From the NCBI GenBank assembly GCA_963755025.1, contig CAVWIH010000037.1, forward strand, positions 1 through 64,000: a DNA stretch of 64,000 bases, in the 5' to 3' direction. This DNA comes from an uncultured Actinomycetes bacterium (GTDB lineage: Bacteria > Actinomycetota > Thermoleophilia > UBA2241). This document shows, piece after piece, positions 26,625-42,873 of the stretch. Position 1 is the first letter of the stretch, and every line of letters starts with the position of its first letter. Under the pieces are notes generated by a model that was given only the letters and a program-made list of their open reading frames with translations, was not told the origin of the DNA and made no database searches. Both the position numbers and the translations under genes were made by a program.

Positions 26625-26636
26625 GCTCACTCCTCG

Positions 26637-28322
26637 CTACGCGCGCTGCGGACGGTTGGTGACGTCGTCGGCAAAGGCCCCGACGATCGACAGGAATGCG
26701 CTCGGGCTGGTCTGCCCGAGGCCACACTTGGCGGCGACCTGCATGGTCGCCCCCAGGGCCTTGAGGTCGGCCAGGTGGGCGGCCGAGCACTCGCCGTTCT
26801 TGAGCAGCTCGACGCCTTCGAGGAGCTGGTGGTTGCCCAAGCGGCACGGCGTGCACTGGCCGCACGACTCTTCGACGAAGAACTCGAGGAAGTTCTCGGC
26901 GACGTCGAGCAGGTCGCGCTGCGGGCCGATCACCATGACCGATCCGCCGGTGGGGATGTCTTCGAAGGCCAGCCGGCGCTCGAAGTCGTTGGCCGGCACG
27001 CAGACGCCCGAAGCGCCGCCGATCTGGACGGCCTTGGCGCCCGTGCCGCCGACCTCTTTGAGCAGGTCGGCCACCGTGATGCCCCAGGGGAACTCGTACA
27101 CGCCGGGCTTTTCGCAGTCGCCCGAGATGCTGAAGAGCTTGTAGCCCGTCGACTTGTCGGTGCCGAAGCCCTTGAACCACTCGGTGCCCTTGGCGAAGAT
27201 GCAGGCCACCGAGGCCAGCGTCTCGACGTTGTTGACCACCGTGGGGTGGTTGAGGAAGCCGGCGACGGCCGGGAACGGCGGCCGGTTGCGGGGCTCGCCG
27301 CGGAACCCTTCGAGCGACTCGATCAGGGCGGTCTCTTCGCCGCAGACGTAGGCGCCGGCGCCGCGCGCCAGCACGATGTCGAAGTCGAAGCCCTCGACGC
27401 CGCCGATGTTGGCGCCGAGCAGGCCGGCTTGCCGGCGCTTGTGGATGACGTCGTTCAGGTGGGCGCGCAGGTAGGCGTATTCGGCGCGCAGGTAGACGAT
27501 GCCCATGTTGGCGCCGATGGCGCGGCCGCCGATGGTCATGCCCTCGAAGACGAGGTCGGGGAAGTCGCGCAGGATGACGCGGTCTTTGAAGGTGCCGGGC
27601 TCGCCTTCGTCGGCGTTGCAGATGATGTACTTCTGGTCGCTCTTTTCAGCGGCGCAGAAGTTCCATTTCATGCCGGTCGGGAAGCCGGCGCCGCCGCGGC
27701 CCTTGAGGGCCGCCCCGGAGAGCGTGTCGACGATGTCGCCGCGGCGCATGGTGAGCGCGGTCTTCATGCCGGCGTTGGGCTCGATCGTGGCGTAGGTCAG
27801 CTGGTTGCGGCTGGTGACGATGTCCTGGCGCTCTTCGTCGGCCGCCTTGGTGCGGTAGTCGGCGACGATCTCGGCGACCTTCTCGGGCGTGACGCGCGTG
27901 AAGACACGGTCGTTGACGAGCAGGGCCGGGCCCTGGTCGCACATGCCGACGCAGCTCGCCCACTCGAGGGTGAAGACGCCGTCGTCGGTGGTGGCGCCGA
28001 AGTCGATGCCGAGCGCCACGCGCAGGGCCTCGGCGACGGCCGTCTTGCCGGCGAAGTCGCACGACAGCGTGCCGCAGAGCCGCACGACAAAGCGCCCCTC
28101 GGGCGCGCCGTGCAGGAAGGCGTAAAAGGTGGCCACGCTGAAGACTTCGACCGGGTGCACGCCGACCAGGTCGGCGACGATCTGCATGGCTTCGTCGGTG
28201 ATCTCGTGCTGGGCCGTCTTGACGTCTTGCAGGATGGGGATGAGCGAGGTGCGCTCACCGCCGTGACGTTCGACAATGGCGACGATCTCGTCGCGCGCCG
28301 GAGAGTCGGTGATGGTCAGCAT
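26637..28322 (-). CDS. NAD(H)-dependent diaphorase subunit, NuoE-NuoF fusion (HoxF-like), partner of hydrogenase 1
   Basis: NuoE-like N-terminus (CGTLSC...CVGMC) fused to NuoF ([42 protein letters not shown]...CGLG); no C-terminal dicluster domain. Confidence 0.93.
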   Translation of the reverse strand: MLTITDSPARDEIVAIVERHGGERTSLIPILQDVKTAQHEITDEAMQIVADLVGVHPVEVFSVATFYAFLHGAPEGRFVVRLCGTLSCDFAGKTAVAEALRVALGIDFGATTDDGVFTLEWASCVGMCDQGPALLVNDRVFTRVTPEKVAEIVADYRTKAADEERQDIVTSRNQLTYATIEPNAGMKTALTMRRGDIVDTLSGAALKGRGGAGFPTGMKWNFCAAEKSDQKYIICNADEGEPGTFKDRVILRDFPDLVFEGMTIGGRAIGANMGIVYLRAEYAYLRAHLNDVIHKRRQAGLLGANIGGVEGFDFDIVLARGAGAYVCGEETALIESLEGFRGEPRNRPPFPAVAGFLNHPTVVNNVETLASVACIFAKGTEWFKGFGTDKSTGYKLFSISGDCEKPGVYEFPWGITVADLLKEVGGTGAKAVQIGGASGVCVPANDFERRLAFEDIPTGGSVMVIGPQRDLLDVAENFLEFFVEESCGQCTPCRLGNHQLLEGVELLKNGECSAAHLADLKALGATMQVAAKCGLGQTSPSAFLSIVGAFADDVTNRPQRA

Positions 28323-28332
28323 CGCGCGCCCC

Positions 28333-28704
28333 CTAAAGGCCCAGTAGCTCGTTGACCTGGGCGACCAGCGTGGCCGGCTCGACCGGCTTGGACTGGAACT
28401 TCTCGACCGGCACGATCTCGTCGTCGCGGTCGATGGTGAGGCCCATGGCGGCATTGACGGAGGTGAGCATGATGATCGGCTGGGCGAAGCCCTGGCGGCG
28501 CAGCTCGCGCGCCATGATGAGCCCGTCGTCGGGCTCTTCCATCATGACGTCGAGGATGAGCAGATCGGGCTTGACGTCGGCGACCTGCTGCAGGCCTTCG
28601 ACACGGTTCGAGGCGCATTTGACCTGGAACCCCTCTTTTTCCAGGACGAGTTTGCAGGCCTCCTGGATGTCGGGGTCGTCGTCGACGATCAGGATCTTGG
28701 ACAC
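28333..28704 (-). CDS. Single-domain response regulator
   Basis: GTG after AAGGAG; ILIVDDD, LILDVMM, IIMLTS and KP; no output domain. Confidence 0.92.
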   Translation of the reverse strand: MSKILIVDDDPDIQEACKLVLEKEGFQVKCASNRVEGLQQVADVKPDLLILDVMMEEPDDGLIMARELRRQGFAQPIIMLTSVNAAMGLTIDRDDEIVPVEKFQSKPVEPATLVAQVNELLGL

Positions 28705-30222: not shown

Positions 30223-32229
30223 CTACAGCTCGTGCCGCGGCAGCGTGACGACGAAGGTCGTCTCGGTGGGTCCGGCGGCTGGGTCGGCGTTCGATTCGAC
30301 CTTGATCTGGCCGCGGTGCATCTTGACGATGCCGTGGGTGACCGCCAGGCCAAGGCCGGTGCCCTTGCCCACCTGCTTGGTGGTGAAGAAGGGGTCGAAG
30401 AGCTTGTCCATGTTGGCGCGGGGAATGCCCACGCCGGTGTCGGTGACCATGAAGGTGACCTCGTCGGCCGTGTCGCTCAGGCGGATGATGAGGGCGCCGC
30501 CCTCGGGCATGGCCTGCTGGGCGTTCGAGACGAGGTTGGTCAGCACCTGGACCATCTGGTCGGCGTCAAGCTCGGCGACCGGGTCGTCCATGGTGCTCTC
30601 GACGCGCACCATGATGTTCTCGTCGAGCGGCATGGTGCGCAGCGTGTCGTTCACGAGCTCGACCAGGTTGGTGGGCTGGCGCACGACGCGGCTCTGACGG
30701 GCGAAGTTGAGCAGCCCGGAGATGATCTTCTTGCAGCGGTTGGCCTGGTCGACGATGAGCTTCAAGTCGTCGGCCATCTCGGCGTTCTGGTCGATCTCTT
30801 CGAGCAGTATGTTGGCCTGCAGCAGGAGGATGCCGAGCGGGTTGTTGACCTCGTGGGCGATGCCGGCGGCGAGCTGCCCCATGCTGGCGAGCTTCTCGGA
30901 CTTGACCAGAGCCTCTTTGGTCGACTCGAGCGAGCGGTGCGAGTCTTCGAGGTCGCCGACGGTGGTCGAGAGCTTCTCGATCACGAACGGCAGGCACATG
31001 GTCTCTTCGGCGATGCCCTGGTAGACGGCCACGGCGTGGCGCCGGCAGGTGCCGTAGCCGCAGGCGCCGCAGTTGAGCTCGTCTTCGGGAGTGGTCTTGT
31101 TCATGCGCCGCAGGATGGCGGTGATGTCGGCCTCGGTGGGCTCGACCAGGAAGCGCTCGTCTTGCGGGGTGAAGGTGCGCGACAGGTCGATGCCGGCGAA
31201 GGCTTGCATGTTGGCCTCCCAGGCGGCCTGGTCGAAGCCCTCGCTCAAGTGCTTGGCGTGGCGGCTGATCTGGGCGCGACGCCGGTAGAGCGGTTCGTCG
31301 TTGCTGAAGCCCACCCCGGCGATGCAGCCCTCGCAGGCGAGGATGTCGAGCAGGCGGACTTCGGATTCGCCGTGCTCGAAGTCGTTGATGGCCTCGACGA
31401 AGTGCTCCATGCCGTCGGCGGCGATGATCTCGCCGGTCATGAGGTCTTCGGGCAGATTCGCGGCCTGCAGCAGGCCGCGCGCCAGCGGGAACAGCGAACC
31501 CTGCGAGCCGTGCGGCGGGTCGAACGAGTCGCCGGCGCCGGGCTTGGGGACGATGTGGCGCTCGGCGAACATCTGGCGCAGCTCGGCGAAGGTGAGCACG
31601 GCGTCGATCTCAAAGAGGATGTCGGCGCTCGCCGCCTCGCCTTTCTTGGCGATGCAGGGGCCGATGAACACGACCTTGGCGTCGGGGCCGTGCACCGACG
31701 GGTCGTGCAGCACGCGCGACATGGCGATCATCGGCGAGGCGATGGGCGCCAGCGACGACGTGAGGTCGGGGTGGTACTTGCGCACAAACGAGACCACGGC
31801 CGGGCAGGGCGTGGCGATGTAGCGCGCGTCGCTGTTGTCCTCGAGGAGCTTCGCGAAGGCGCGCGCCACGAGGTCGGCGCCGAAGGCCACTTCGTGCACG
31901 GCGGCAAAGCCGAGCTCGCGGGTCATGGCGACCAGCTGGGCTTCGTCTAAGTCGGTGAACTCGGCCGGGAAGCTCGGCGCGATGATGGCCATGACCGAGC
32001 GGCTCGAGTCGAGCAGGTCGAACGTGCGGTCGACCTCGCCGTAGGCCTGCTTGGCGTTCTGCGAGCAGACCCGAAAGCAGTTGGCGCAGCCGATGCAGCG
32101 CGAAGGAATGACGCTGGCGCGCCCGTCGACCACGCGGATGGCTTCGGCGGGGCACTCGCGCACGCACGCATAACAGCGCCGGCAGCGCTCCTTGATGGTG
32201 GTGACGAGTCCGTCTTCGCCGATCAGCAT
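30223..32229 (-). CDS. Sensory (group C-like) [FeFe]-hydrogenase fused to a histidine kinase
   Basis: 2x[4Fe-4S]; variant H-cluster motifs ATPCPAVV, IGPCIAKKGE and LACEGCIAG; NCGACGYGTC...MCLP FeS domain; then SEKLASMG...AHEVNNPL, DTGVG and FDPFFTTK...GTGLGL. Confidence 0.9.
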   Translation of the reverse strand: MLIGEDGLVTTIKERCRRCYACVRECPAEAIRVVDGRASVIPSRCIGCANCFRVCSQNAKQAYGEVDRTFDLLDSSRSVMAIIAPSFPAEFTDLDEAQLVAMTRELGFAAVHEVAFGADLVARAFAKLLEDNSDARYIATPCPAVVSFVRKYHPDLTSSLAPIASPMIAMSRVLHDPSVHGPDAKVVFIGPCIAKKGEAASADILFEIDAVLTFAELRQMFAERHIVPKPGAGDSFDPPHGSQGSLFPLARGLLQAANLPEDLMTGEIIAADGMEHFVEAINDFEHGESEVRLLDILACEGCIAGVGFSNDEPLYRRRAQISRHAKHLSEGFDQAAWEANMQAFAGIDLSRTFTPQDERFLVEPTEADITAILRRMNKTTPEDELNCGACGYGTCRRHAVAVYQGIAEETMCLPFVIEKLSTTVGDLEDSHRSLESTKEALVKSEKLASMGQLAAGIAHEVNNPLGILLLQANILLEEIDQNAEMADDLKLIVDQANRCKKIISGLLNFARQSRVVRQPTNLVELVNDTLRTMPLDENIMVRVESTMDDPVAELDADQMVQVLTNLVSNAQQAMPEGGALIIRLSDTADEVTFMVTDTGVGIPRANMDKLFDPFFTTKQVGKGTGLGLAVTHGIVKMHRGQIKVESNADPAAGPTETTFVVTLPRHEL

Positions 32230-32630
32230 GGCGGCTCTCCAAGCAGCTCGCGGACCTTGGCGACCAGGGCCGTGGCATCGAGGGGTTTGTCGAAGTAGGC
32301 GTCGACCTTCATAGAGGCGAGGTCGGCCGCCGAGTGCGGCGTGAAGTCGAGGCCCAGCGCGGTGGTGACCGACGTCGACATGATGATCGGCACGGCCGTG
32401 GTGCGGGGGTCGTCGCGCAGCCGCTTCGACAGCGAAAAGCCGGAGTCGACCTCGCTCATCATGAGGTCGGTGATGACCAGGTCGGGCGTCTCGGCCTCGA
32501 CCTTGTCCATGGCCTGCGAGGGGCTGCCGGCGGTGACCACGCGAAAGCCTGCCCTCTCGAGGATGCGGCGGTTGATCTCGAGGAAGTCGTAGTCGTCGTC
32601 GACGATCAGGATGAGTCGCTCGTCTGCCAT
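32223..32630 (-). CDS. Single-domain response regulator
   Basis: ILIVDDD, VITDLMM, IIMSTS and DKP; stop overlaps the start of the sensory hydrogenase. Confidence 0.92.
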   Translation of the reverse strand: MADERLILIVDDDYDFLEINRRILERAGFRVVTAGSPSQAMDKVEAETPDLVITDLMMSEVDSGFSLSKRLRDDPRTTAVPIIMSTSVTTALGLDFTPHSAADLASMKVDAYFDKPLDATALVAKVRELLGEPPC

Positions 32631-32717: not shown

Positions 32718-34490
32718 CTAGACGCGGTCCTTGCCCGCGTAGTGCGTGTGCAGGAGGTGGTGAGCCTTCTCGCCACCGGCTTCGCCGAGCCACGTGCTGT
32801 AGAGCTCGAGGACGGCCGGGTTCTCGTGGCTCTTGCGCAGCTCACGGCCCTCGTCTTCGCGGTAGATGGCGGCGATGCGCGCCTCACGCACGGCGTTCGT
32901 GGTGAGCCGCGGCTGGCCGCCGCCGCCGATGCAGCCGCCGGGGCAGGTCATGACCTCGACGAAGTGGTACTCGGCCTCGCCGCTCTTGATGGCGTCGATG
33001 ACCTTCTGGGCGTTGCCCAGCGTGTGGGCCACGGCGACCTTCACCGTGACGCCTTCGAGGAACGACCACTCCGGCACGGCGCCTTCGATCAGCACTTCGG
33101 CGTGCTTGACGCCTTCGAGCCCTTCGATCGGGGCGACGTGCAGGTTCTCGAACGGGAACGGCCGGCCGGTCACGAGCTCGTAGACCGTGCGCAGCGCGGC
33201 TTCCATGACGCCGCCCGTGTTGGCGAAGATGTCGGCGGCGCCGGTCGACAGACCGAGCGGCTTGTCCATCTTCTCGTCGGGCAGGCTGTCGAAGTCGATG
33301 CCGCCCTGCTTGATCATGCGCACCAGTTCGCGCGTGGTCAGCACGACGTCGACGTCCTGCACGCCCGAGTCGTCCATCTCGGGACGCTGGCACTCGAACT
33401 TCTTGGCGGTGCAGGGCATGACGCTGGCCACGAAGATGTCCTCGGGCCGCTTGCCGAGCTTCTCGGCGTAGTAGGTCTTGGCCACCGCCCCGAACATCTG
33501 CTGCGGGCTCTTGCAGCTCGAGAGGTTGGGCAGGAAGTCGGGGTTGTAGTGCTCCATGTAGTTGATCCAGCCCGGCGAGCAGCTCGTGAACATCGGCAGG
33601 GCGACCTCTTGCTTGTCGACCAGCGCCGCCTTGAGGCGCATGAGCAGCTCGGTGCCTTCCTCGATGATGGTGAGGTCGGCGGCGAAGTTGGTGTCGAACA
33701 CGCCGTCGAAGCCCAGGCGGCGCAGGGCGGCGACCATCTTGCCGGTCACCACGGTGCCGGGCTCGTAGTCGAAGCCCTCGCCCAGGGCGGCGCGGATGGC
33801 CGGAGCCGTCTGCACCACGACGTACTTGTCGGGATCGTCGAGGGCCTGCCAGACCGTGTCGATCTGGTCGCGCTCGATGATGGCCCCGACCGGGCAGACC
33901 GCGGCGCACTGGCCGCACTGCACGCAGGTCACGTCGGAGAGGTCGGAAGCAAACGCCGGTCCGATCACCGTCGTGAAGCCGCGGCCCTGCGGGAACAGGG
34001 CGCCCACGCCCTGGGTCTCGTTGCACACCGTGACGCAGCGCCGGCACATGATGCACTTGCCGCTGTCGCGGATGAGCGCGGGCGTGGAGTCGTCGATGGT
34101 CTTGGTGGTCTTCTCGCCTTCGTAGCGGATCTGGTCGATGCCCAGATCGCGCGCCAGGGTGCGCAGTTCGCAGTCGGCGCTGCGGGCGCAGGTCTGGCAG
34201 TTGCCGTCGTGCTCGGAGAGGAGCAGCTCGACGACGGTCTGGCGGCCCTTGCGGGCGAGCGCCGAGTTGGTCTTGACGACCATGCCCTCGGCCACCGGAG
34301 CGGCGCACGAGGCCACGAGCGCCTTGGCGCCCTGGACTTCGACGAGGCAGACGCGGCAGGCGCCGATCGTCTGCACGTCTTCGAGGTAGCACAGGCTCGG
34401 CACCTTGGAGCCGACCTGACGGGCGGCCTGCAGGATGGTGGTGCCGTCCGGGACCTCGACCTTGATGTCGTCTACAGTGAGGGTTGGCAT
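32718..34490 (-). CDS. hndD: Group A [FeFe]-hydrogenase catalytic subunit, HndD-like (system 2)
   Basis: [2Fe-2S], EHDGNCQTC and 2x[4Fe-4S]; H-cluster motifs FTSCSPGW, MPCTAKKFE and EVMTCPGGCIGGGGQP. Confidence 0.95.
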   Translation of the reverse strand: MPTLTVDDIKVEVPDGTTILQAARQVGSKVPSLCYLEDVQTIGACRVCLVEVQGAKALVASCAAPVAEGMVVKTNSALARKGRQTVVELLLSEHDGNCQTCARSADCELRTLARDLGIDQIRYEGEKTTKTIDDSTPALIRDSGKCIMCRRCVTVCNETQGVGALFPQGRGFTTVIGPAFASDLSDVTCVQCGQCAAVCPVGAIIERDQIDTVWQALDDPDKYVVVQTAPAIRAALGEGFDYEPGTVVTGKMVAALRRLGFDGVFDTNFAADLTIIEEGTELLMRLKAALVDKQEVALPMFTSCSPGWINYMEHYNPDFLPNLSSCKSPQQMFGAVAKTYYAEKLGKRPEDIFVASVMPCTAKKFECQRPEMDDSGVQDVDVVLTTRELVRMIKQGGIDFDSLPDEKMDKPLGLSTGAADIFANTGGVMEAALRTVYELVTGRPFPFENLHVAPIEGLEGVKHAEVLIEGAVPEWSFLEGVTVKVAVAHTLGNAQKVIDAIKSGEAEYHFVEVMTCPGGCIGGGGQPRLTTNAVREARIAAIYREDEGRELRKSHENPAVLELYSTWLGEAGGEKAHHLLHTHYAGKDRV

Positions 34491-37400
34491 CAGCGGTTCA
34501 CCTCGGTCTTGGCACAGGTCTTTCCGTAGTCACAACGCAGGCAGCGCCGCGCTTCGGCGACGGCCGTCTCGGCCGCCCACGAGAGCTCGACTTCGTCGAA
34601 GCCGCCGACACGCGCGCTGGCGGCCAGCTCGGGCACGACGGCGCGCGGCGTCTCGACGGGGATCGGCGTCGGGGTCGAACGCGGTGTCGACCGCGACGTC
34701 GCGACGCCAGAAGGCATGGTTGGCGCCGGTGAGGAACGAATCGATGGAGACGGCGGCCTTCTCGCCGGCTCCGATGGCGGCCACGACCGAGGCCGGACCC
34801 GTGACGGCGTCGCCGCCGGCGAAGATCCACTCGACCGAGGTACGGCCGTCCTTGTCGGTCTTGAGCCAGCCCTTCCTGGTGGTCTCGACCGAGACGCCGT
34901 CGAACAGCGGCGCGCTGTCGAGCCACTGGCCGATGGCGGCGATGACCTGGTCGCACTCGACGACGAAGTCGGCGTTGCGGCCGGCGACCGGGCGGCGACG
35001 GCCGCTCGAGTCGTAGTCGCCCAGGGTCATCGGGCGGCACTTCACGCCGACCAGCTTGCCGGCGGCGTCGTGCACGATCTCGACCGGCGCGACGAGCGGC
35101 TGAAGCACGATGCGCTCGTCTTCGGCGGCGTCGATCTCTTCGGCCCACGCGGGCATCTGGGCGCGCGTGCGGCGGTAGAGGATGGTGACCTGGTCGGCGC
35201 CGAGGCGCAGGGCGGTGCGGGCCGCGTCGATGGCGGAGTTGCCGCCGCCGATGACCGCGACGCGCTTGCCGACCTCGACCGTGCCGTCGACGTTGTAGGT
35301 CTTGAGGAACGACAGCGCTTCGGTGACGCCCTCGCCGTCTTCGCCGGGCACGCCGATGTTGGAGCCCTGCGGGGCGCCGACGCCGAGGAACACGGCCTCG
35401 AAGCCGTCGTCGTGCAGGCCCTGGAGGGTGAAGTCGCGCCCGAGCGCCTTGTCGCACTCGAGGGCGACGCCCATCTCCTGGATCATCGAGATCTCGCGGC
35501 CGAGCTCTTCGCGCGGCAGCCGGTAGGCCGGGATGGCCTGCACGAGCATGCCGCCGGGGGTCGAGGCGGCCTCGAAGATGGTCGGCTTGTAGCCCAGGCG
35601 AGCCAGGAAGTAGGCGCACGACAGGCCGGCCGGACCGGAGCCGATCACGGCGACCTTGCGCTTGGCGTTCTCGTCGCTCACGAGGACCTCGGGCAGGGCG
35701 ACCACGGTCTCCTGCTCGGTCATGAAGCGCTTGACGCCACGGATGGCGACGGGCGCGTCGAAGCCGGCGCGCTGGCACTTGCTCTCGCAGGGGTGGAAGC
35801 ACACGCGGCCGCAGATCGAGGCCAGCGGGTTGCGCTCGCGATGCAGCACGAGGGCCTCGTCGAAGCGCTTCTCGCCGACCAGGCTCACGAAGCCCGGCAC
35901 GTCGACGTCGGCGGGGCAGGCGTTGGTGCAGCGCGCCTTGAACATGGTCGCGCAGACGCCGGCTTCGCAGTGCTTGTCGAGGATGTGGGCTTCCCACTCG
36001 TGACGGAAGTGGCGGATCATCGACAGCACCGGGTTGGGGGCCGTCTGGCCGAGGCCGCACAGCGCGGTCTCCTTGATCATGGCGCCGAGCTCCTGCAGAC
36101 GCTCGATGTCGCCCTCTTCGCCCTGGCCGTCGCAGATGCGGTCGACGATCTCGAGCATGCGCTTGGTGCCGACCCGGCAGGGCGGGCACTTGCCGCAGCT
36201 CTCTTCCTGGGTGAACTCGAGGAAGAAGCGCGCCATGTCGACCATGCACGAGTCCTCGTCCATGATGACGAGGCCGCCGGAGCCCATGATGGCGCCGAGC
36301 TCCTGGAGCGACTCGTAGTCGACCGGACGTGTCGAGGTGCTCAGTAGGGCACGCAGCCGCCGGAGGGACCGCCGATCTGCACGGCCTTGAGCGCCTTGCC
36401 GCCGGGCACGCCGCCGCCGATCTCGTTCATGATCTCGCCGAGCTGCATGCCGATCGGCACTTCGACCAGGCCGGTGTTGGTGATGTTGCCGCCCAGGGCG
36501 AAGACCTTGGTGCCCTTGCTCTTCTCGGTGCCCGTCGCGGCGAACCACTCGGCGCCCTTGAGGATGATGGGGTTGATGTTGGCGTAGGTCTCGACGTTGT
36601 TGAGCACGCTGGGCTTGCCCCAGAGGCCCTTGACCGCCGGGAACGGCGGGCGCGGGCGCGGCTCGCCGCGGTGACCTTCGATCGAGGTCATGAGCGCGGT
36701 CTCTTCGCCGCAGACGAAGGCGCCGGAGCCCATGCGGATCTCGAGGTCGAAGGCAAAGCCCGTGCCGAGGATGTCGTCGCCGAGGAGGCCGTAGTCGCGC
36801 GCCTGGTCGATGGCGTACTGCAGGCGCTCGACGGCCAGCGGGTACTCGGCGCGCACGTAGACGTAGCCCTGATGGGCGCCGATCGCGTAGGCGCCGATGG
36901 CCATGCCCTCGATCACCGAGTGCGGGTCGCCTTCGAGCACCGAGCGGTCCATGAACGCGCCCGGGTCGCCTTCGTCGGCGTTGCAGAGGATGTACTTGGT
37001 CTCCTCTTTCTGCTGCTGGGCGAAGCGCCACTTGAGGCCGGTCGGGAACCCGGCGCCGCCGCGGCCGCGCAGGCCCGAGGCGAGCACTTCGTCGACGATG
37101 CTCTCGGGGGTCATCTCGGTGATCGCCTTGGCGAGCGCGCCGTAGCCGTCGCGGGCGATGTAGTCCTCGATGCTCAGCGGGTCGATGAGGCCCGAGTTGC
37201 GCAGCACGATCTTGACCTGGCGGTTGAAGAACTCGACGTCGTGCATCTCGGCGATCGACTTCTCGGTGCCGGGCGCGGTGCTCACGAGGCGCGGTACGAC
37301 GCGGCCCTTGAGCAGGTGCTCTTCGACGATCTCAGCGACGTCGGGCACCTTGATGTTCTGGTAGAAGACGCCGTCGGGGTAGACGAGCGCGACCGGGCCC

Positions 37401-37561
37401 ACGGCGCACGGCCCCAGGCAACCGGTCTCGACGACCTGGACTTCGCTCGCCAGGCCGTGCTTTTCGAGCTCCTCGCTGAACGCGGCGCTGACGGCCAGCG
37501 CGCCCGAGGCGATGCAACCGCCGCCGGTGCAGACGAGGACGTGGCTTCTGAACTGCTCCAT
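34490..37561 (-). CDS. HndC/HydB-like flavin subunit fused to a GltD-like FAD/NADP(H) oxidoreductase (frameshifted near 36340 and 34670)
   Basis: Thioredoxin-like [2Fe-2S] N-terminus, [36 protein letters not shown] and [10 protein letters not shown]; then [43 protein letters not shown] and EARRCLRC. Stop overlaps the hndD ATG. Confidence 0.88.
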
Positions 37562-37574
37562 ATCCGCTTCCTTC

Positions 37575-37946
37575 CTACGACCGGATCAGCAGCGCGTCGA
37601 CCGGCTTGCCGCCGACGAGGTGCTCGGTGACGATCGTCTTGACCTTCGCGTCGTCGAGCAGCCCGTAACGGTAGGGCGTGTCGCTCGCGTCGCGGACGGT
37701 GATCATGGGCTCCTGCTCGCAGAGGCCGGCGCAGCCGGCCTGGCGCAGCGTGACGTCGTCGACGCCGGCCGCGGCCATCTCGCGCATGAAGGCGGCGATC
37801 ACGCCGCGCGCTCCGGCGGCGATGCCACAGGTGCCCATATGGACCGTCACCTGGATCTCCTTGGTCCCCTCACGCAGCTCGACCGAGGCCTTCGCCCTGT
37901 CGGCCATCGCCTTGAGGTCTGCGGCGCTCTTGATCTTCTCGGCCAT
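37575..37946 (-). CDS. hndB: HndB-like thioredoxin-type [2Fe-2S] subunit
   Basis: VHMGTCGIAAGA, GCAGLCEQEP and EHLVGGKPV motifs. Confidence 0.9.
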   Translation of the reverse strand: MAEKIKSAADLKAMADRAKASVELREGTKEIQVTVHMGTCGIAAGARGVIAAFMREMAAAGVDDVTLRQAGCAGLCEQEPMITVRDASDTPYRYGLLDDAKVKTIVTEHLVGGKPVDALLIRS

Positions 37947-37950
37947 GGCG

Positions 37951-38481
37951 TCAGGCACTCCTTTCGGCTGCGGCGGTCTCGGCGGCGTACTCTTCGAGGA
38001 TCGCGCCGATGCGCTTGGGCTTGACGCGGTGGTGCACGTCGTCGTCGATCATGATGACCGGCGCGAGTCCGCAGGCGCCGAAGCAGCGGCCGACCTCGAG
38101 CGAGAAGTTACGGTCGTCGGTGGTGCCGCCGACGTCGATGCCCAGATCTTTTTTGAGCGCGTCGAGCACGCCGACGCCGCCGCGCACGTAGCAGGCCGTC
38201 CCCAGGCAGACCCTGATGACGTGCTTGCCGCGGGGCACGGTCGAGAAGAACGAATAGAAGCCGACCACGCCGGCCACCTCGCTGTAGGGCTTGCCCAGTT
38301 TGAGGGCGACGTGCTTGAGGGCGACCTCGGGCAGGTAGCCGAAGATGCCCTGGGCCAGCTGGAGCACCGGGATAAGGGCGCCCGGCTTGTCCTTGTAGCC
38401 CGCGATCACGTCGTCGAGACGGGCGAGAAGCTCCTCCTCGCTTGCCTCCTCGCAACTGCACTGTTGCAAGACTTCAGTCAT
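37951..38481 (-). CDS. hndA: HndA/HydC/NuoE-like [2Fe-2S] subunit
   Basis: ATG after AAGGAG; LIPVLQLAQGIFGYLP, VCLGTACYVRG and RCFGACGLAP. Confidence 0.93.
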   Translation of the reverse strand: MTEVLQQCSCEEASEEELLARLDDVIAGYKDKPGALIPVLQLAQGIFGYLPEVALKHVALKLGKPYSEVAGVVGFYSFFSTVPRGKHVIRVCLGTACYVRGGVGVLDALKKDLGIDVGGTTDDRNFSLEVGRCFGACGLAPVIMIDDDVHHRVKPKRIGAILEEYAAETAAAERSA

Positions 38482-39143
38482 CCCACGCTCCTTTGCTGCT
38501 GTCGTAAGTCCACAGGATCCACCGTTTGAGTCGTAGCTGTCGGTGCTTTTGGGCCGGATGGTTCGTGCGTCGGGGGTTGGTTCGGGTCGGGTGTGCGACG
38601 CCCGTGGGTGACGGGCGTGGTGGTCGGCATGGCGGCGGGCTCGTCGGCGGTGGCCAGCAGGGCCGTGCAGCGCGCGGCGACCGCGCCGAAGGCGGCCAGC
38701 TCGGCGCCCTGCGCCAGGCAACTGTCGGCGCCGGCCTGGACGTCGAGCACGAGGGTCGCCTGGGGGTTGGTCGCGGCCATCACGGCCACCGACTCGCAGA
38801 CGTCGCCGAGCGGCGCGCGGTCGACGTGCGACAGGCTCATGACGACCTCGATCGCGACGCCGCCCAGGGTGGGCGAGCGCTGCAGGGTGAGGCTGCCGTC
38901 GGCCTCTTCGGCGGCCTCGCGGAACAGCGGCAGGCCGAGGCCCGTGCGCTTGCCGGCCTTGGTCGTGAAGAAGGGGTCGGTCGCCTGGTCGGCGCTCACG
39001 TCGAGGCCGGGGCCGTCGTCGTCGACCGAGATCGCCAGGCGGTCGTGCATGGGGTCGATGACGACCCGCACAGCGACGCGCTCGGCGCCGGCGCGCAGCG
39101 AGTTCTCGATCATCTCGAGCGTGTAGAGGGAGAGGTCATGCAT
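38478..39143 (-). CDS. Stand-alone HATPase_c (kinase-like ATP-binding) protein of hydrogenase loci
   Basis: MHDLSLYTLEMIENSLRAGA, DDGPG, DPFFTTK...GLGLP and HVDRAPLGD; no H-box. Confidence 0.85.
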   Translation of the reverse strand: MHDLSLYTLEMIENSLRAGAERVAVRVVIDPMHDRLAISVDDDGPGLDVSADQATDPFFTTKAGKRTGLGLPLFREAAEEADGSLTLQRSPTLGGVAIEVVMSLSHVDRAPLGDVCESVAVMAATNPQATLVLDVQAGADSCLAQGAELAAFGAVAARCTALLATADEPAAMPTTTPVTHGRRTPDPNQPPTHEPSGPKAPTATTQTVDPVDLRQQQRSVG

Positions 39144-39891
39144 TGACGACCGCCCTGCCTTGCGCCGTTCTGACGGCGAGGGCGACCTCGGCGAAGGTCG
39201 GCGCCTCGAGGGTGAGCGTGGTGGTCGCGCAGCCAACGTCGGCGAGGTAGTGGCTGTCGGAGGAGTGCATGATCGGCAGGCCGTAGTCGGCGCAGGCCGC
39301 CGCCGCCGGCGAGTCGGGCGGCGCGAAGCGCGACAGCTCGACGGCGTCGAAGCCGGCCTCGAACGGAAAGAAGCCGAGCTGGGCGATCACGCCGAAGGTG
39401 GGGCGGTCGATGTGGGCGGCCACGACCAGGCCGCCGAAGCGCTTGACGAGGGCGACCGCTTCGTCGAGCCGCAGCGAGGTCGCCAGGGCGAGCGCGTGGC
39501 CTTCGTGGCCGCACACCGTGCCGGCCGAGTCCATGAGGTACTGCTCGCCGAAGAAGCGCGTGTAGTCGTCGTCGGTGGGCGGCAGCGTGGCGCAGACCTC
39601 GCCGGCCGCGTTGGCCGCCGCGGCGGCGGTGGGGAAGAGGCCGAGGACGTGCACCTCTTCGACCGTGGTGATCTCGATGCCCGAGATGACCGCGAGGCGC
39701 GCGCCGGCGGCTTCGCCCACGGCCCGCGTGTTGCCGGCGGCGTTGTGGTCGCACACGGCGATCATGTCGAGGCCCGCCGCGAGGGCGGCGTCGACGATGG
39801 CCGGCGGCGACATCTCGTCGTCGCCGCAGGGCGACAGCGCGGTGTGCACGTGAAAGTCGGCGAGCAGGGTTTTCACGGCGTCAGGCGACAC
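39136..39891 (-). CDS. PHP-domain phosphoesterase
   Basis: DFHVHTALSPCG, CDHN, GIEITTVEEVH, AHIDR and SSDSH motifs. Confidence 0.9.
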   Translation of the reverse strand: MSPDAVKTLLADFHVHTALSPCGDDEMSPPAIVDAALAAGLDMIAVCDHNAAGNTRAVGEAAGARLAVISGIEITTVEEVHVLGLFPTAAAAANAAGEVCATLPPTDDDYTRFFGEQYLMDSAGTVCGHEGHALALATSLRLDEAVALVKRFGGLVVAAHIDRPTFGVIAQLGFFPFEAGFDAVELSRFAPPDSPAAAACADYGLPIMHSSDSHYLADVGCATTTLTLEAPTFAEVALAVRTAQGRAVVNA

Positions 39892-40243: not shown

Positions 40244-41794
40244 TCAGCCTCCGTCGGTCGAGCGGTAGGGGCACAGGGTGGCGTCGGCGCGTGCGAGCAC
40301 CACGTCTTCGGCCAGGGCCGCGCACGTGGGGGCGCCGCAGGCGCCGCAATCTTTGCCGGGCAGCGAACGCCGCACGGTCTCGAGGCGGGCGAGCTTCTTG
40401 ATGGCCTTGGCCATGTCGGCGTCGAGGCGTATGCCGGGGCGCGCCGCGAACGGTTCGAGCGGCGCCGCGGTGGGCGGTGCGCTGGCCGCGGGCGCGGCGG
40501 ACGCCGGCCAGCGCGCTTCGGAGAGAAAGGGGTCGTCGGCCAGCATGGGCGAGCCGAAGCAGCCGCCGTCGCACACGAAGAGCTCGAGCGCCGCGGTGGT
40601 CGTGAGCAGGCCGTTCTCTATTTGCTCGAGCACGGCGATCACGTGCTCGATGCCGGTCACGCGCAGCACGCCGTCGTCGGGCCGGGCGGCGGCCAGCGGC
40701 GCAGCCGACTCGTCGTGCCGGTCGGCGAGGTGCGAGAGCACGAGGTCGCGCAGCAGGGCGGGCTCGACGGCGCGGCTCGCGGCGTCGACGCCGCGCGCGG
40801 CCAGCGCGCTGCGCTGGCCCGGGCACGACACCACGTAGGCGGCGCTTGGGTCGGTGCTGACGGCGGCCAGCGACTCCCAGGGCGAGGCGAAGGGCGCCAG
40901 GTGAGCCAGGAGCGAGGGAAAGCGCAGCTCGATCAGGTCGACGACCGAGGGGCAGGCCGGCGAGAGCACCGGCCAGGGGCGCTCGTGGGCCTGGGCCTGG
41001 GCCATGACCTCGCGGCGCAGGGCGTCTTCGAAGTCGTCGACCGAGTGCACGTCGGCAAAACCGGCCTGGGCCAGGGCGTCGCGCACGGAGGCGGCGGGCA
41101 CGTGCTCGCCGAACCCGGCGAGAAAGGCGGGCGGCACGGCGAGCGAGCCGGCGCCGAGGCGCTGCGCGTCGGGCGCCGTGGCGGCCAGGCACAGCGCGCC
41201 CGAGTCGCACACCGCGATGCAGCAGGTGCAGTCGATGCAGAGGTGGGCGAGCACCGACGGCACGCCGTCGCGCACGCGGATGGCGTTGGTGGGGCAGGCG
41301 GTGAGGCAGCGCCGGCAGTCGCGGCACAGCTCGGCGATGACGGCCAGCGACAAGACGGGGTGGGCGACCGCGCGCTCGGGCTGCAGCAGCACGGTGAAGT
41401 GCACCGTGGTGCCCTTGTCGACCTCGCTTTCGAGGGCGAAGACGTCGGAGTTGCTGCGGATGTTGGGCAGGCCCAGGCCGGCGCCGAAGCCCAGGGCGCG
41501 CGCTTCGGCGGGGGCTGTGGACCAGCCCGGCGTGAGCGCCTTCTCCAGGTCGGCGATGCCGGGCCCCTCGTCGATCACGTCGACCTCGAGGCGGCGCTCG
41601 TCGAAGGCCGCGTCGAGGCGCCCGCGATGGGCGTGGATGACGACGTTCATCTCGGCTTCGTAGGCGGCGATCATGGCGCGGCGGATGGCGTCGGAGCGCG
41701 CTCCGATCGACTTGAGGTGGGCTTTGATGGCGCGCGACGCGCCGCCCGCCTCGTTGTAGTCGCCGCCCTCGATGTCGTAGCTGACATGCTCCAC
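40244..41794 (-). CDS. RsbT/anti-sigma-type Ser/Thr kinase fused to a degenerate [FeFe]-hydrogenase-like FeS protein
   Basis: Kinase part AGGAS...IAAYEAEMNVVIHA, DEGPGI, GWSTA and GFGAGLGLPNI; then 2x[4Fe-4S], LSPACPSV, VSCPGQR, VCDGGCFGSP and LPGKDCGACGAPTC. GTG start at 41794. Confidence 0.85.
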   Translation of the reverse strand: MEHVSYDIEGGDYNEAGGASRAIKAHLKSIGARSDAIRRAMIAAYEAEMNVVIHAHRGRLDAAFDERRLEVDVIDEGPGIADLEKALTPGWSTAPAEARALGFGAGLGLPNIRSNSDVFALESEVDKGTTVHFTVLLQPERAVAHPVLSLAVIAELCRDCRRCLTACPTNAIRVRDGVPSVLAHLCIDCTCCIAVCDSGALCLAATAPDAQRLGAGSLAVPPAFLAGFGEHVPAASVRDALAQAGFADVHSVDDFEDALRREVMAQAQAHERPWPVLSPACPSVVDLIELRFPSLLAHLAPFASPWESLAAVSTDPSAAYVVSCPGQRSALAARGVDAASRAVEPALLRDLVLSHLADRHDESAAPLAAARPDDGVLRVTGIEHVIAVLEQIENGLLTTTAALELFVCDGGCFGSPMLADDPFLSEARWPASAAPAASAPPTAAPLEPFAARPGIRLDADMAKAIKKLARLETVRRSLPGKDCGACGAPTCAALAEDVVLARADATLCPYRSTDGG

Positions 41795-41802
41795 GGCGGC
41801 GT

Positions 41803-42873
41803 TCAGACCCGCGCCGACTGGGGGGTCGCCGGAGCGGCCGTGAGGGACTGGTAGATGAGGCCGCAGGTCTCGAACACGCCGATCGGCGAGACCATGAGCG
41901 TGGTGCCCGCGCTGTCGGCCTTGGCGACGATCTCGGGTTCGGGCGAGGCGCCGTTCACAAAGCAGACCGCGGGCACGTCCATGAGCTCGGCGACGCGGAT
42001 CATCTGCAGGCTCATGAGGTTGGTCACCAGCAGGGTGCGGTCGGAGGCTTCGTTCAACAGGTCGCTCACGCGGTCGCCGGCGTAGATCTTCTCGACGATG
42101 CGCTGCGGGCACGACTCGCCCGAGATGATGGTGGCGCCGATGCAGCGCGCCAGTTCGTCGAGTCGCACCTCGCCGCCGGCCAGCAGCGAGTCGAGCTGGC
42201 GCATGAGCGGCACGGCGGCCTTTTCGGCTTCGGCCTCGGCCTCGGCTTCGGCTTCGAGCGGCGTCTCGCGGGCGATATAGGCGGCGGTCTCGAGGGCGGC
42301 GGTGATGTCGACATCGATCACCGAGACGCCCTCGGGTACCTGCAGCGGCGTGGCGGCGAAGCTCACGATGGAGCGCACGCCCGCGCGCACGAGGGTGTCG
42401 GTGACTTCTTGCGCGGCGGCCGGCGGCGTGGTCACCACGGCGATCTGCACGCCGAGGTCGCGCACGGTCGATTCCATGATGGCGGCGGGAAAGCAGCGGC
42501 AGCCTTCGACCCGCACGTCGACCTTGGCGGGGTCGTTGTCGAAGGCCGCGACGATGGCGAGCTTGGGGCGGCGGCCGGCGGAGTGGGCGATGACCGAGCG
42601 CCCCAGCTTGCCGACGCCGACGAGCGCCACGTCCTGGCGGATGGGGCCGTCGAGAAAGCCGCCGATGCTCTCGATGCATTTGTCGACTTCGTAGCCGTGC
42701 GTGGGGCTGCCCGAGTAGCCGATCGACATGAAGTCGCGGCGCACCTGGGCGGCCGTCAGGCCGGCGAGCTTGGCGAGCTGATGGGAGAACACGTGGCTCG
42801 TGCCCGCGTCGCGCAGCGAGATGAGCAGGCGCCGATAGAGGCTCATGCGAGCGATCGTCTTGCGCGAGACCAT
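41803..42873 (-). CDS. rex: Redox-sensing transcriptional repressor Rex fused to a C-terminal DRTGG domain
   Basis: GAGGAGGA RBS; RMSLYRR, SHQLAKLAGLTAAQVRRDF...GY and VALVGVGKLG...AAFDND; (EA)n linker; then IYAGDRVSDLL...LLVTNL...FETCGLIY. Confidence 0.9.
   Translation of the reverse strand: MVSRKTIARMSLYRRLLISLRDAGTSHVFSHQLAKLAGLTAAQVRRDFMSIGYSGSPTHGYEVDKCIESIGGFLDGPIRQDVALVGVGKLGRSVIAHSAGRRPKLAIVAAFDNDPAKVDVRVEGCRCFPAAIMESTVRDLGVQIAVVTTPPAAAQEVTDTLVRAGVRSIVSFAATPLQVPEGVSVIDVDITAALETAAYIARETPLEAEAEAEAEAEKAAVPLMRQLDSLLAGGEVRLDELARCIGATIISGESCPQRIVEKIYAGDRVSDLLNEASDRTLLVTNLMSLQMIRVAELMDVPAVCFVNGASPEPEIVAKADSAGTTLMVSPIGVFETCGLIYQSLTAAPATPQSARV

Follow-up and report, generated by a model that had tools for sequence, protein, structure and literature searches.

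In the model developed for HydABC/Bfu enzymes, electrons from the A subunit enter a centre made up of flavin mononucleotide (FMN), an N3-type cluster and the [2Fe-2S] cluster of HydC; nicotinamide adenine dinucleotide (NAD+) is reduced at the FMN, and a low-potential path leads through clusters C1, B3 and B4 to ferredoxin, B3 and B4 being carried by a mobile C-terminal domain of BfuB that forms part of the ferredoxin site (PMC11829005; PMC12018979). Variants in which this mobile domain is exchanged for something else have been noticed in genomes. In 2018 an enlarged HydB with a GltD domain was reported for the trimeric [FeFe]-hydrogenase of Vallitalea guaymasensis L81 (PMC6163223), and in 2024 Zheng and Huang (mSystems) defined by the same replacement a 'sub-type I' BfuB, on whose biochemistry, they state, nothing is known (PMC11406978). 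Here we analyse such a gene, hydB::gltD, in a stretch of 64,000 nucleotides from an uncultured Thermoleophilia-like actinobacterium (the window; positions 1 to 64,000 of contig CAVWIH010000037.1, assembly GCA_963755025.1). Judged from its sequence, hydB::gltD is an actinobacterial member of this published, genome-described HydABC variant. The architecture will hardly surprise a specialist; the design is widespread and known from genomes (2018, 2024). The preliminary description of this DNA was unaware that the same fusion was in print (PMC6163223; PMC11406978); the structural part of what it claimed holds.

The gene starts with an ATG at 37561 and ends with a TGA at 34492-34490 on the minus strand of a window whose G+C content is ~70%. 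Extra bases divide it into frame pieces A, B and C (Table 1), on each of which the Pfam profile search was run separately. Piece A matched 2Fe-2S_thioredx (1e-06), Complex1_51K (2.7e-47) and, below the cut-off, SLBB (3.2e-04), a domain that reaches 29 bits, above the cut-off, in the orthologue at locus L010. Piece B matched NADH_4Fe-4S (2.1e-35, residues 34-118), Fer4_20 (1.7e-18, residues 124-210, profile positions 19-108) and Pyr_redox_2 (4.3e-33, residues 228-525), while in piece C the match was to the beginning of the Fer4_20 profile (positions 3-33). In none of the three pieces did a Fer4 dicluster family of ferredoxin type give a Pfam match; Fer4_20 alone was found. As the junction between the NuoF and GltD parts (~35969-35985) lies inside the single frame of piece B, it is not an artefact of a frame change. 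The preliminary description had proposed just this, namely that the ferredoxin-like C-terminal domain is swapped for a GltD/NfnB-like module with iron-sulphur (FeS), flavin adenine dinucleotide (FAD) and NAD(P)H parts, joined to NuoF in one open frame. It is borne out by the presence of NADH_4Fe-4S, Fer4_20 and Pyr_redox_2 together in 34533-36338, and by the motifs it named, which include GGGNSA and LYRR (within ILYRRT) and are found in the translation.

Table 1. Coordinates of hydB::gltD, its parts and extra bases, the neighbouring genes and other loci discussed in the text (aa, amino acids; MAGs, metagenome-assembled genomes)
Feature	Location	Strand	Evidence or remark
hydB::gltD (HndC/BfuB 'sub-type I')	34490..37561	minus	open reading frames, Pfam, intact orthologues 1000-1053 aa
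hydB::gltD frame piece A	36344-37561	minus	406 aa, stop-to-stop reading
hydB::gltD frame piece B	34533-36338	minus	602 aa, stop-to-stop reading
hydB::gltD frame piece C (tail)	34493-34717	minus	75 aa, stop-to-stop reading
N-terminal thioredoxin-like [2Fe-2S] domain of HydB	37319..37549	minus	PF01257, residues 5-81
FMN/NADH-binding domain (Complex1_51K, PF01512)	36575..37081	minus	Pfam 2.7e-47
N3-type [4Fe-4S] domain (NADH_4Fe-4S, PF10589)	35985..36239	minus	followed by H-x5-C-x4-C linker motif
GltD-type FeS domain (Fer4_20)	35709..35969	minus	includes Lys at StnC K170 position
FAD + NAD(P)H Rossmann domains (Pyr_redox_2)	34764..35657	minus	GSGPAG, GGGNSA, YRRT..MPA
C-terminal tail with 'EARRCLRC'	34511..34606	minus	first Fer4_20 element (profile positions 3-33), after flavin domain
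extra base 1 (A, coding strand)	36341	minus	TGG (Trp) becomes TGA, with frame shift
extra base 2 (T, coding strand)	36327	minus	14 bases past 36341
extra base 3 (G, coding strand)	34657	minus	placed at 34662 by some alignments
hydA, catalytic [FeFe]-hydrogenase subunit	32718..34490	minus	590 aa; Fe_hyd_lg_C 9.4e-97
hndB-like small thioredoxin-like [2Fe-2S] subunit	37575..37958	minus	PF01257 8.6e-05 (below cut-off); syntenic in relatives
hndA/hydC (NuoE-like [2Fe-2S] subunit)	37951..38481	minus	PF01257 3.8e-47
histidine-kinase-like ATPase gene + PHP-domain gene, cluster head	38478..39891	minus	domain scan, synteny
response regulator + HydS-like sensory hydrogenase	30223..32630	minus	Fe_hyd_lg_C 1.4e-43, HisKA, HATPase_c; downstream of hydA; synteny
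HydA2	24702-26636	minus	Fe_hyd_lg_C 4.6e-84
HydB2 (NuoE-NuoF fusion)	26640-28541	minus	full 2Fe-2S_thioredx + Complex1_51K + NADH_4Fe-4S
loci like L010 (Verrucomicrobiota/Armatimonadetes MAGs)	L009, L011-L014, L017, L023, L034, L037, L038
split ABC_tran examples in own genome	C13:132477-132912, C11:125027-125453, C21:73276-73702, C2:22834-23281, C34:121448-121929

Conservation was counted, and an AlphaFold2 model built, from 31 fused homologues. The cysteines Cys48 and Cys52 of HydB are kept in 29 of the 31, and the linker residues H525, C531 and C536 are invariant, as are R797 and all eight cysteines of the module, that is C1006 and C1009 of the tail and six others (31/31 in each case). The H-x5-C-x4-C motif of the linker also occurs in HydB and StnB; the Stn paper describes a Zn-stabilised linker at the corresponding position, and by analogy these residues may be the ligands of a linker Zn. 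The model of the fused protein has a predicted local distance difference test score (pLDDT) of 85 and a predicted template modelling score of 0.81, and the C-terminal tail up to its second Cys (residues 971-1000) is modelled at pLDDT 85-90.

To place both halves among proteins of known structure, the intact orthologue P0007 served as a proxy query against PDB sequences. Its residues 3-541 matched bifurcating HydB of the A. mobile NiFe enzyme (7t2r_B, 1.2e-243) and of A. woodii (7q4v_B, 3.9e-242), as well as T. kivui HydB, StnB, NfnB and the T. maritima protein; the core is ~63% identical to A. woodii HydB (residues 4-542), and the likeness to HydB stops at residue 541-546. From there residues 543-1010 matched C. 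saccharolyticus NfnA (103-567, 2.1e-111), StnC (103-566, 1.7e-98) and T. sibiricus NfnA, ahead of T. maritima NfnB (2.3e-92) and P. furiosus NfnL (2.6e-83), with GltD (5e-51) and DPD far behind. Foldseek, run with the AlphaFold2 model, returned the same two families, a HydB core and an Stn/Nfn module. In the window protein the flavin domain precedes the 'EAxRCLxC' element, an order shared by StnC and NfnA, while in NfnB/NfnL the element is N-terminal (residues 15-46). We considered whether this order was a circularly permuted novelty and rejected the idea, since StnC and NfnA share it. The residue aligned with StnC K170 is Lys (AIRGVKRFM), and in the fused homologues that position holds Lys in 27, Glu in 3 and His in 1 of the 31. 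The YRRT..MPA stretch, whose residues we take to contact the 2'-phosphate of NADPH (the reduced phosphate form of NAD), is common to five NADPH-dependent enzymes in the alignments. The second pyridine-nucleotide site suggested in the preliminary description is thus a natural, sequence-based inference, and its statement that in Stn the homologous module sits on a different subunit, StnC, agrees with both the alignments and the comparison of loci. According to the Stn paper, K170 of StnC is an unusual and strictly conserved ligand of the FAD-proximal cluster, a position that is Glu in NfnB, and the StnC FAD has been shown to be non-bifurcating although an Arg is retained. With its trailing RCLxC, its Lys at the K170 position and its YRRT..MPA stretch, the module is, by these hallmarks, of the Stn/Nfn-Bfu kind, and its FAD is probably a plain entry or exit site for NADP(H) in the position of the ferredoxin branch.

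Likeness to the published 'sub-type I' BfuB of group A3 (BfuABDC) extends beyond the fused subunit. In both, the B3/B4 domain has given way to DPD_II (Fer4_20) followed by an FAD/NAD(P) domain at the C-terminus; four subunits are encoded, in the order C-D-B-A; HydA belongs to the M3a type, motif P1 having Ser as its fifth residue; and genes for H-cluster-like sensors adjoin the operon (PMC11406978). As regards the domains that define the sub-type, judged by Pfam, Fer4_20 and Pyr_redox_2 follow NADH_4Fe-4S in one frame. The described proteins are from Hydrogenedentota genomes, whereas the window copy is from a Thermoleophilia-like actinobacterium; moreover, their authors postulate a second bifurcating FAD, whereas the Stn-type hallmarks seen here argue for a non-bifurcating one. 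In HydB of V. guaymasensis L81, as described, a GltD domain likewise takes the place of the two-[4Fe-4S] domain after the FMN/NADH domain (PMC6163223), but that enzyme is trimeric and belongs to a cultured Firmicute, whereas the window operon adds a fourth, HndB-like subunit.

The structurally characterized relatives each share one half of the protein. HydABC and NiFe-HydABCSL enzymes (A. woodii 7q4v, T. kivui 8a6t, T. maritima 7p5h, A. mobile 7t2r) match the core, residues 3-541, at E-values of 1e-243 to 1e-183 and at ~48-68% identity in Foldseek, and they too have HydC-like and HydA partners, but they carry a C-terminal 2x[4Fe-4S] (B3/B4) domain that is part of the ferredoxin site where the window HydB has an FAD/NADPH module. 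In StnABC and Nfn-Bfu (S. ovata 8oh5, C. saccharolyticus 9bov, T. sibiricus 9n5u) the module is homologous over its full length (543-1010 against StnC 103-566), and the trailing RCLxC, the Lys ligand at K170, YRRT..MPA and a HydBC-type core are all the same. There, however, the module is an insertion in a NuoG-like A subunit and serves the mid-potential input path, whereas here it forms the C-terminus of the B subunit, in the place of the ferredoxin arm, and the A subunit is a real hydrogenase. The insertion in the A subunit is seen in the true Stn-type loci L039, L040, L042 and L063. The large subunit of NfnAB/NfnSL (T. maritima NfnB 4ylf_B, P. furiosus NfnL 5jca_L) and GltD have the same FeS-FAD-NADPH fold, but NfnB and NfnL differ in having RCLxC at the N-terminus and a Glu ligand, in contrast with the C-terminal element and Lys of the window module. 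Among the operon genes scanned there is no NfnA/NfnS partner, which sets the protein apart from the NfnB/NfnL class, and among the cluster genes scanned there is no GltB-like gene, so it is not placed with GltD, the small subunit of glutamate synthase.

Existing classification schemes treat such a protein in different ways. Schut et al. (2022) defined BfuB by IPR011538, IPR019554, IPR019575 and IPR017896 (PMC9304861). With Pfam equivalents standing in for these InterPro entries, hydB::gltD has the FMN-binding 51K domain (PF01512), SLBB and the Nuo51-type [4Fe-4S] domain (PF10589), and its BfuC and BfuA partners are present (HndA, PF01257 3.8e-47; HydA with Fer2_4, NADH-G_4Fe-4S_3 and Fer4_7), but it lacks the C-terminal dicluster (IPR017896, B3/B4). 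As that census demanded a ferredoxin-type dicluster in BfuB, it would omit the fused proteins. By the rule of HydDB a NuoF domain beside the catalytic subunit indicates group A3, and A2 is assigned only if GltD 'but not NuoF' is found (PMC5037454). Since NuoF and GltD domains occur together in the protein next to HydA, this rule, applied to Pfam domains, puts the enzyme in group A3; the wording of the rule suggests that neighbours of this kind had already been seen in 2016. In PMC7325909, PMC10327494, PMC12918512, PMC3543383 and PMC6085437, GltD or HndC appears in other contexts only.

On balance, we favour the view that hydB::gltD encodes the flavoprotein subunit of a four-subunit cytoplasmic [FeFe]-hydrogenase, HndA-HndB-HydB::GltD-HydA, predicted from its sequence to couple H2 to both pyridine-nucleotide pools, NAD(H) and NADP(H), with no part for ferredoxin. 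The core is of the bifurcating type, with its N-terminal [2Fe-2S], FMN and NAD(H) site, N3-type [4Fe-4S] and His/Cys linker, and the mobile ferredoxin-like domain has been replaced by a complete module of Stn/Nfn-Bfu type, predicted to hold FAD, a pair of [4Fe-4S] clusters and a site for NADP(H). Because it is exactly the B3/B4 domain that has been exchanged for an FeS-FAD-NADP(H) module, the ferredoxin branch would end at NADP(H). Thus, H2 would be split at HydA, its electrons would pass to the centre of FMN, [4Fe-4S] and the HndA [2Fe-2S], NAD+ would be reduced at the FMN, and the former ferredoxin branch would lead through the two clusters of the module and its FAD to NADP+; in the reverse direction H2 would be evolved from NADH and NADPH. 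As the StnC FAD is non-bifurcating and the module has the hallmarks of StnC, the module FAD is expected to act as a plain two-electron/one-electron converter and not as a second bifurcation site. It should be emphasized that computation shows the architecture, the conserved ligands, the operon, the distribution and the nature of the indels, whereas the bound cofactors, the NADPH specificity, the electron path and the energetic coupling of the two sites are what we infer. A more ambitious form of this proposal, which we regard as possible but doubtful, is that of an H2:NAD+/NADP+ oxidoreductase that needs no ferredoxin and couples its two sites energetically, in which the high-potential electrons of a pair go to NAD+ and the low-potential ones through the module to NADP+. 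At physiological potentials of ~-280 mV for NADH and ~-380 mV for NADPH (PMC9304861), exergonic NAD+ reduction would then pay for charging the NADPH pool from dilute H2, and in reverse NADPH would stand in for reduced ferredoxin as the booster of H2 evolution from NADH.

Several points weigh against the proposal of ferredoxin-free coupling to both nucleotides. The standard potential (E0') of NADP+, -320 mV, is not that of a low-potential acceptor, and strict bifurcation is thus not obviously needed; both nucleotide sites may work independently; the model holds no cofactor distances, and that electrons can pass to the module from the HndA cluster or from N3 is therefore an assumption; ferredoxin could dock elsewhere, for instance on HndB, the N-terminal domain of HydB or the HydA clusters; and a search of the full-text literature, with supplementary files outside its reach, found no enzymology of the fused HydB::GltD type, nor anything relevant on Thermoleophilia and peat. 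It could be argued that the enzyme is simply an uncoupled one of dual specificity, in which the H-cluster exchanges electrons independently with NADH (at the FMN) and with NADPH (at the FAD), free of ferredoxin and only at low H2 pressure. Non-bifurcating NADH-dependent [FeFe]-hydrogenases that lack a B3/B4 domain and need no ferredoxin do exist (PMC7311640; PMC11406978), when H2 is low its potential comes near that of NAD(P)H (PMC9304861), and the public runs holding close relatives are labelled as soil and bog metagenomes. The core, however, keeps the features of a bifurcating HydB, from the N-terminal [2Fe-2S] and the His/Cys linker to its identity with the A. woodii protein, and an uncoupled enzyme would be redundant with the separate non-bifurcating HydAB-type hydrogenase encoded in the window, which makes this explanation rather unlikely. 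Still less probable, in our estimate, is that the module FAD is a second, NfnL-like bifurcation site with ferredoxin still a substrate, the enzyme forming a hub for H2, NAD, NADP and ferredoxin. This possibility was raised for 'sub-type I BfuB' by Zheng and Huang (PMC11406978), and it draws on the E-value of the match to T. maritima NfnB, on the Arg at the NfnL R201 position, which is kept (AYRLP) in 31/31 homologues, and on the presence of PFOR in the genome, from which reduced ferredoxin is expected to be made in the source organism. The conserved Arg, together with the Glu that replaces Lys in 3/31 homologues, also counts against a plain converter, in that some members may have a bifurcating FAD. 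The module is nevertheless nearer to StnC/NfnA than to NfnB/NfnL, with the permuted RCLxC and the Lys ligand in common, the FAD of StnC does not bifurcate despite its own Arg, and an NfnA/NfnS-like partner is missing from the scanned operon genes.

All of this presupposes that the gene is intact, whereas it might also be a recently inactivated pseudogene with real frameshifts, leaving the operon non-functional or with HydA only. The preliminary description had placed two indels in the gene and wanted them corrected; there are in fact three single-base insertions, which are indeed best read as errors in the light of relatives, public-run contigs and the frame splits found across the assembly. 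Extra base 1 is absent in L001, L002, L006, L007, L008, L015 and in contigs of runs X1 and X15, extra base 2 is missing from contigs of X1 and X15 and from the relative loci that cover it, and extra base 3 is absent in X1, X2, X3 and in the five covering relative loci (L001, L002, L006, L008, L015). Thus, the six aligned relative loci are without extra bases wherever they cover the sites, and so are the four public runs compared, X2 and X3 having zero depth at 36327/36341; over 34400-34719 (320 nucleotides) the X1 contig differs from the window solely by the base at 34657. The three insertions add up to +3, which brings piece C, and with it the last 60 codons, back into register with the 406 codons of piece A; the corrected frames hold no stop codon, and close relatives encode the protein in one frame across the break sites, for example as DPDADP(L/E)ETPRA, on which ground programmed frameshifting was rejected. 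Amino-acid changes unique to the window show no surplus in HydB, at 9/1020 columns against 7/1263 in five neighbouring genes. What favours real frameshifts is that a single gene holds all three insertions, whereas seven of its neighbours have no frame-changing gap relative to L001, to which the window is 95.3% identical over 10,688 nucleotides with six gaps, the three insertions and three in the spacer between hydA and the regulator. Moreover, the inserted bases lie outside homopolymers, and the contigs that cover 36327/36341 (X1 record 6, X15 record 11) come from strains ~96% identical and not from the source sample. Frame-split genes are common across the assembly (3.37 Mb, 39 contigs, 84% complete): among 62 ABC_tran domains, 5 fall into two neighbouring halves read in different frames, another 2 are present as halves only, and 1 contains a TAA. 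The insertions are therefore very probably assembly errors and the natural gene, by its sequence, intact; inactivation is correspondingly improbable. The apparent pseudogene call for hydB::gltD is not trustworthy, the assembly has numerous frame-breaking indels, and other 'pseudogenes' of this genome are to be distrusted as well. There seems to be about one frame-breaking error per few kilobases of its coding sequence. Run X15 is an RNA library whose contigs span parts of hydB::gltD, which is not proof of transcription. Read joints with short sides (20-35 letters) were set aside, as they derive from conserved NuoF parts of other organisms.

The fusion is widespread. A search with piece B gave at least 8000 candidates at E <= 0.001; among the best 120 matches listed, 98 are 974-1053 amino acids long and have both the NuoF and the GltD Pfam sets, and the closest of those listed are 94-97% identical and labelled as Thermoleophilia or Actinobacteria MAGs. 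Intact orthologues of ~1020 amino acids (1000-1053) are abundant, and full-length fusions account for 9 of the best 150 representatives of 50%-identity clusters. In a quick tree of 109 HydB cores, among which Hydrogenedentota references are not represented, 49 of the 106 inner branches are open; the fusion label needs 7 changes over the tree, and the starred branches force only 2. Several 'unfused' rows beside fused ones in this tree are probably fragments at contig ends. A scan of a genome collection yielded 62 loci, of which 26 were examined. In nine (L001, L002, L003, L005, L008, L015, L016, L018 and L058, labelled Actinomycetota/Thermoleophilia, Planctomycetota or Spirochaetaceae) the fusion is followed by a HydA with an H-cluster; L004 ends at a contig edge; three (L039, L040, L042) are ordinary Stn-type operons; and in the remaining 13, from Verrucomicrobiota, Armatimonadetes and one 'proteobacterium', the next protein matches only the first ~200 residues of HydA. 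The sole one of these 13 to be scanned with Pfam, L010 (5900-14250), encodes the fusion, a NuoG/molybdopterin-like protein without an H-cluster, and the small and large NiFe subunits, and is an A. mobile-type HydABCSL NiFe cluster with the same NADPH arm swap. One of the nine loci with an H-cluster HydA, L058 (7000-14400, labelled an Actinomycetes MAG), matches the window genes only in many short pieces that change frame, and looks like another assembly with frequent indels.

Currently the site and manner of electron-pair splitting in HydABC/Bfu enzymes are debated, and the wiring of the fused protein bears directly on this question. With an NADP(H) flavin wired firmly into the ferredoxin arm, a simple spectrophotometric assay could follow what leaves by the low-potential branch. 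If the two sites are coupled, anaerobes of soil and peat would be able to adjust the ratio of NADPH to NADH directly to ambient H2, with no need of ferredoxin, and 'group A3' hydrogenase genes in metagenomes would have to be interpreted differently; the enzyme would then represent a new class of bifurcation with a pyridine nucleotide as each of its acceptors, and a natural construct for locating the bifurcation site of Bfu enzymes. A general solution among peat and soil anaerobes is suggested by the NiFe-type HydABCSL clusters of Verrucomicrobiota, which show the same arm swap.

The source genome also encodes HydG. RnfD/E gave no match, which at 84% completeness is not evidence of absence. An Stn/NfnABC-type operon of its own (L063, C14:58000-68000) comprises a NuoE-like gene, a HydB-like core 55% identical to that of the window and an StnC-like A subunit whose GltD insert is 38% identical to the window module, and at least three further large open frames in this genome (C20, C27, C30) have the trailing-RCLxC form of Fer4_20.

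On the minus strand the order of genes around hydB::gltD is PHP protein, histidine-kinase-like ATPase, HndA, HndB-like subunit, hydB::gltD, HydA, response regulator and HydS-like sensor. The ATG of hydA overlaps the stop of hydB (TGATG). In addition to its catalytic domain, HydA matches Fe_hyd_SSU, and its H-cluster motifs are TSCSPGW, MPCTAKKFE and EVMTCPGGCIGGGGQP. In motif P1, TSCSPGW, a Ser takes the place of the prototypical second Cys, a substitution that is common in four of the five sub-types, including sub-type I (PMC11406978). The ATPase and PHP genes at the head of the cluster are conserved in L001, L002, L004, L005, L008, L015, L016 and L058. The spacer between hndB and hydB (37572-37574) is 17-18 nucleotides shorter than in L002, L007, L008 and L015, though not in comparison with L001, and probably represents strain variation in the ribosome-binding region.

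Two putative sensors flank these genes. The HydS-like H-cluster sensor is fused to HisKA and HATPase_c at 30226-32292 (minus strand) and adjoins the response regulator (32226-32630), and a second H-cluster-like sensor at 40247-42679 (minus strand) has HATPase_c_2, a Fer4 dicluster and part of Fe_hyd_lg_C (1.3e-11), with an FeS motif at its C-terminus. Both proteins probably sense H2 and regulate the two hydrogenase operons. A second [FeFe]-hydrogenase pair lies directly downstream (window 24699-28541, minus strand). Its HydB2 has neither the N-terminal HydB [2Fe-2S] nor a C-terminal dicluster, and the HydA2/HydB2 arrangement is the one reported for the non-bifurcating NADH-dependent HydAB of Syntrophus aciditrophicus.

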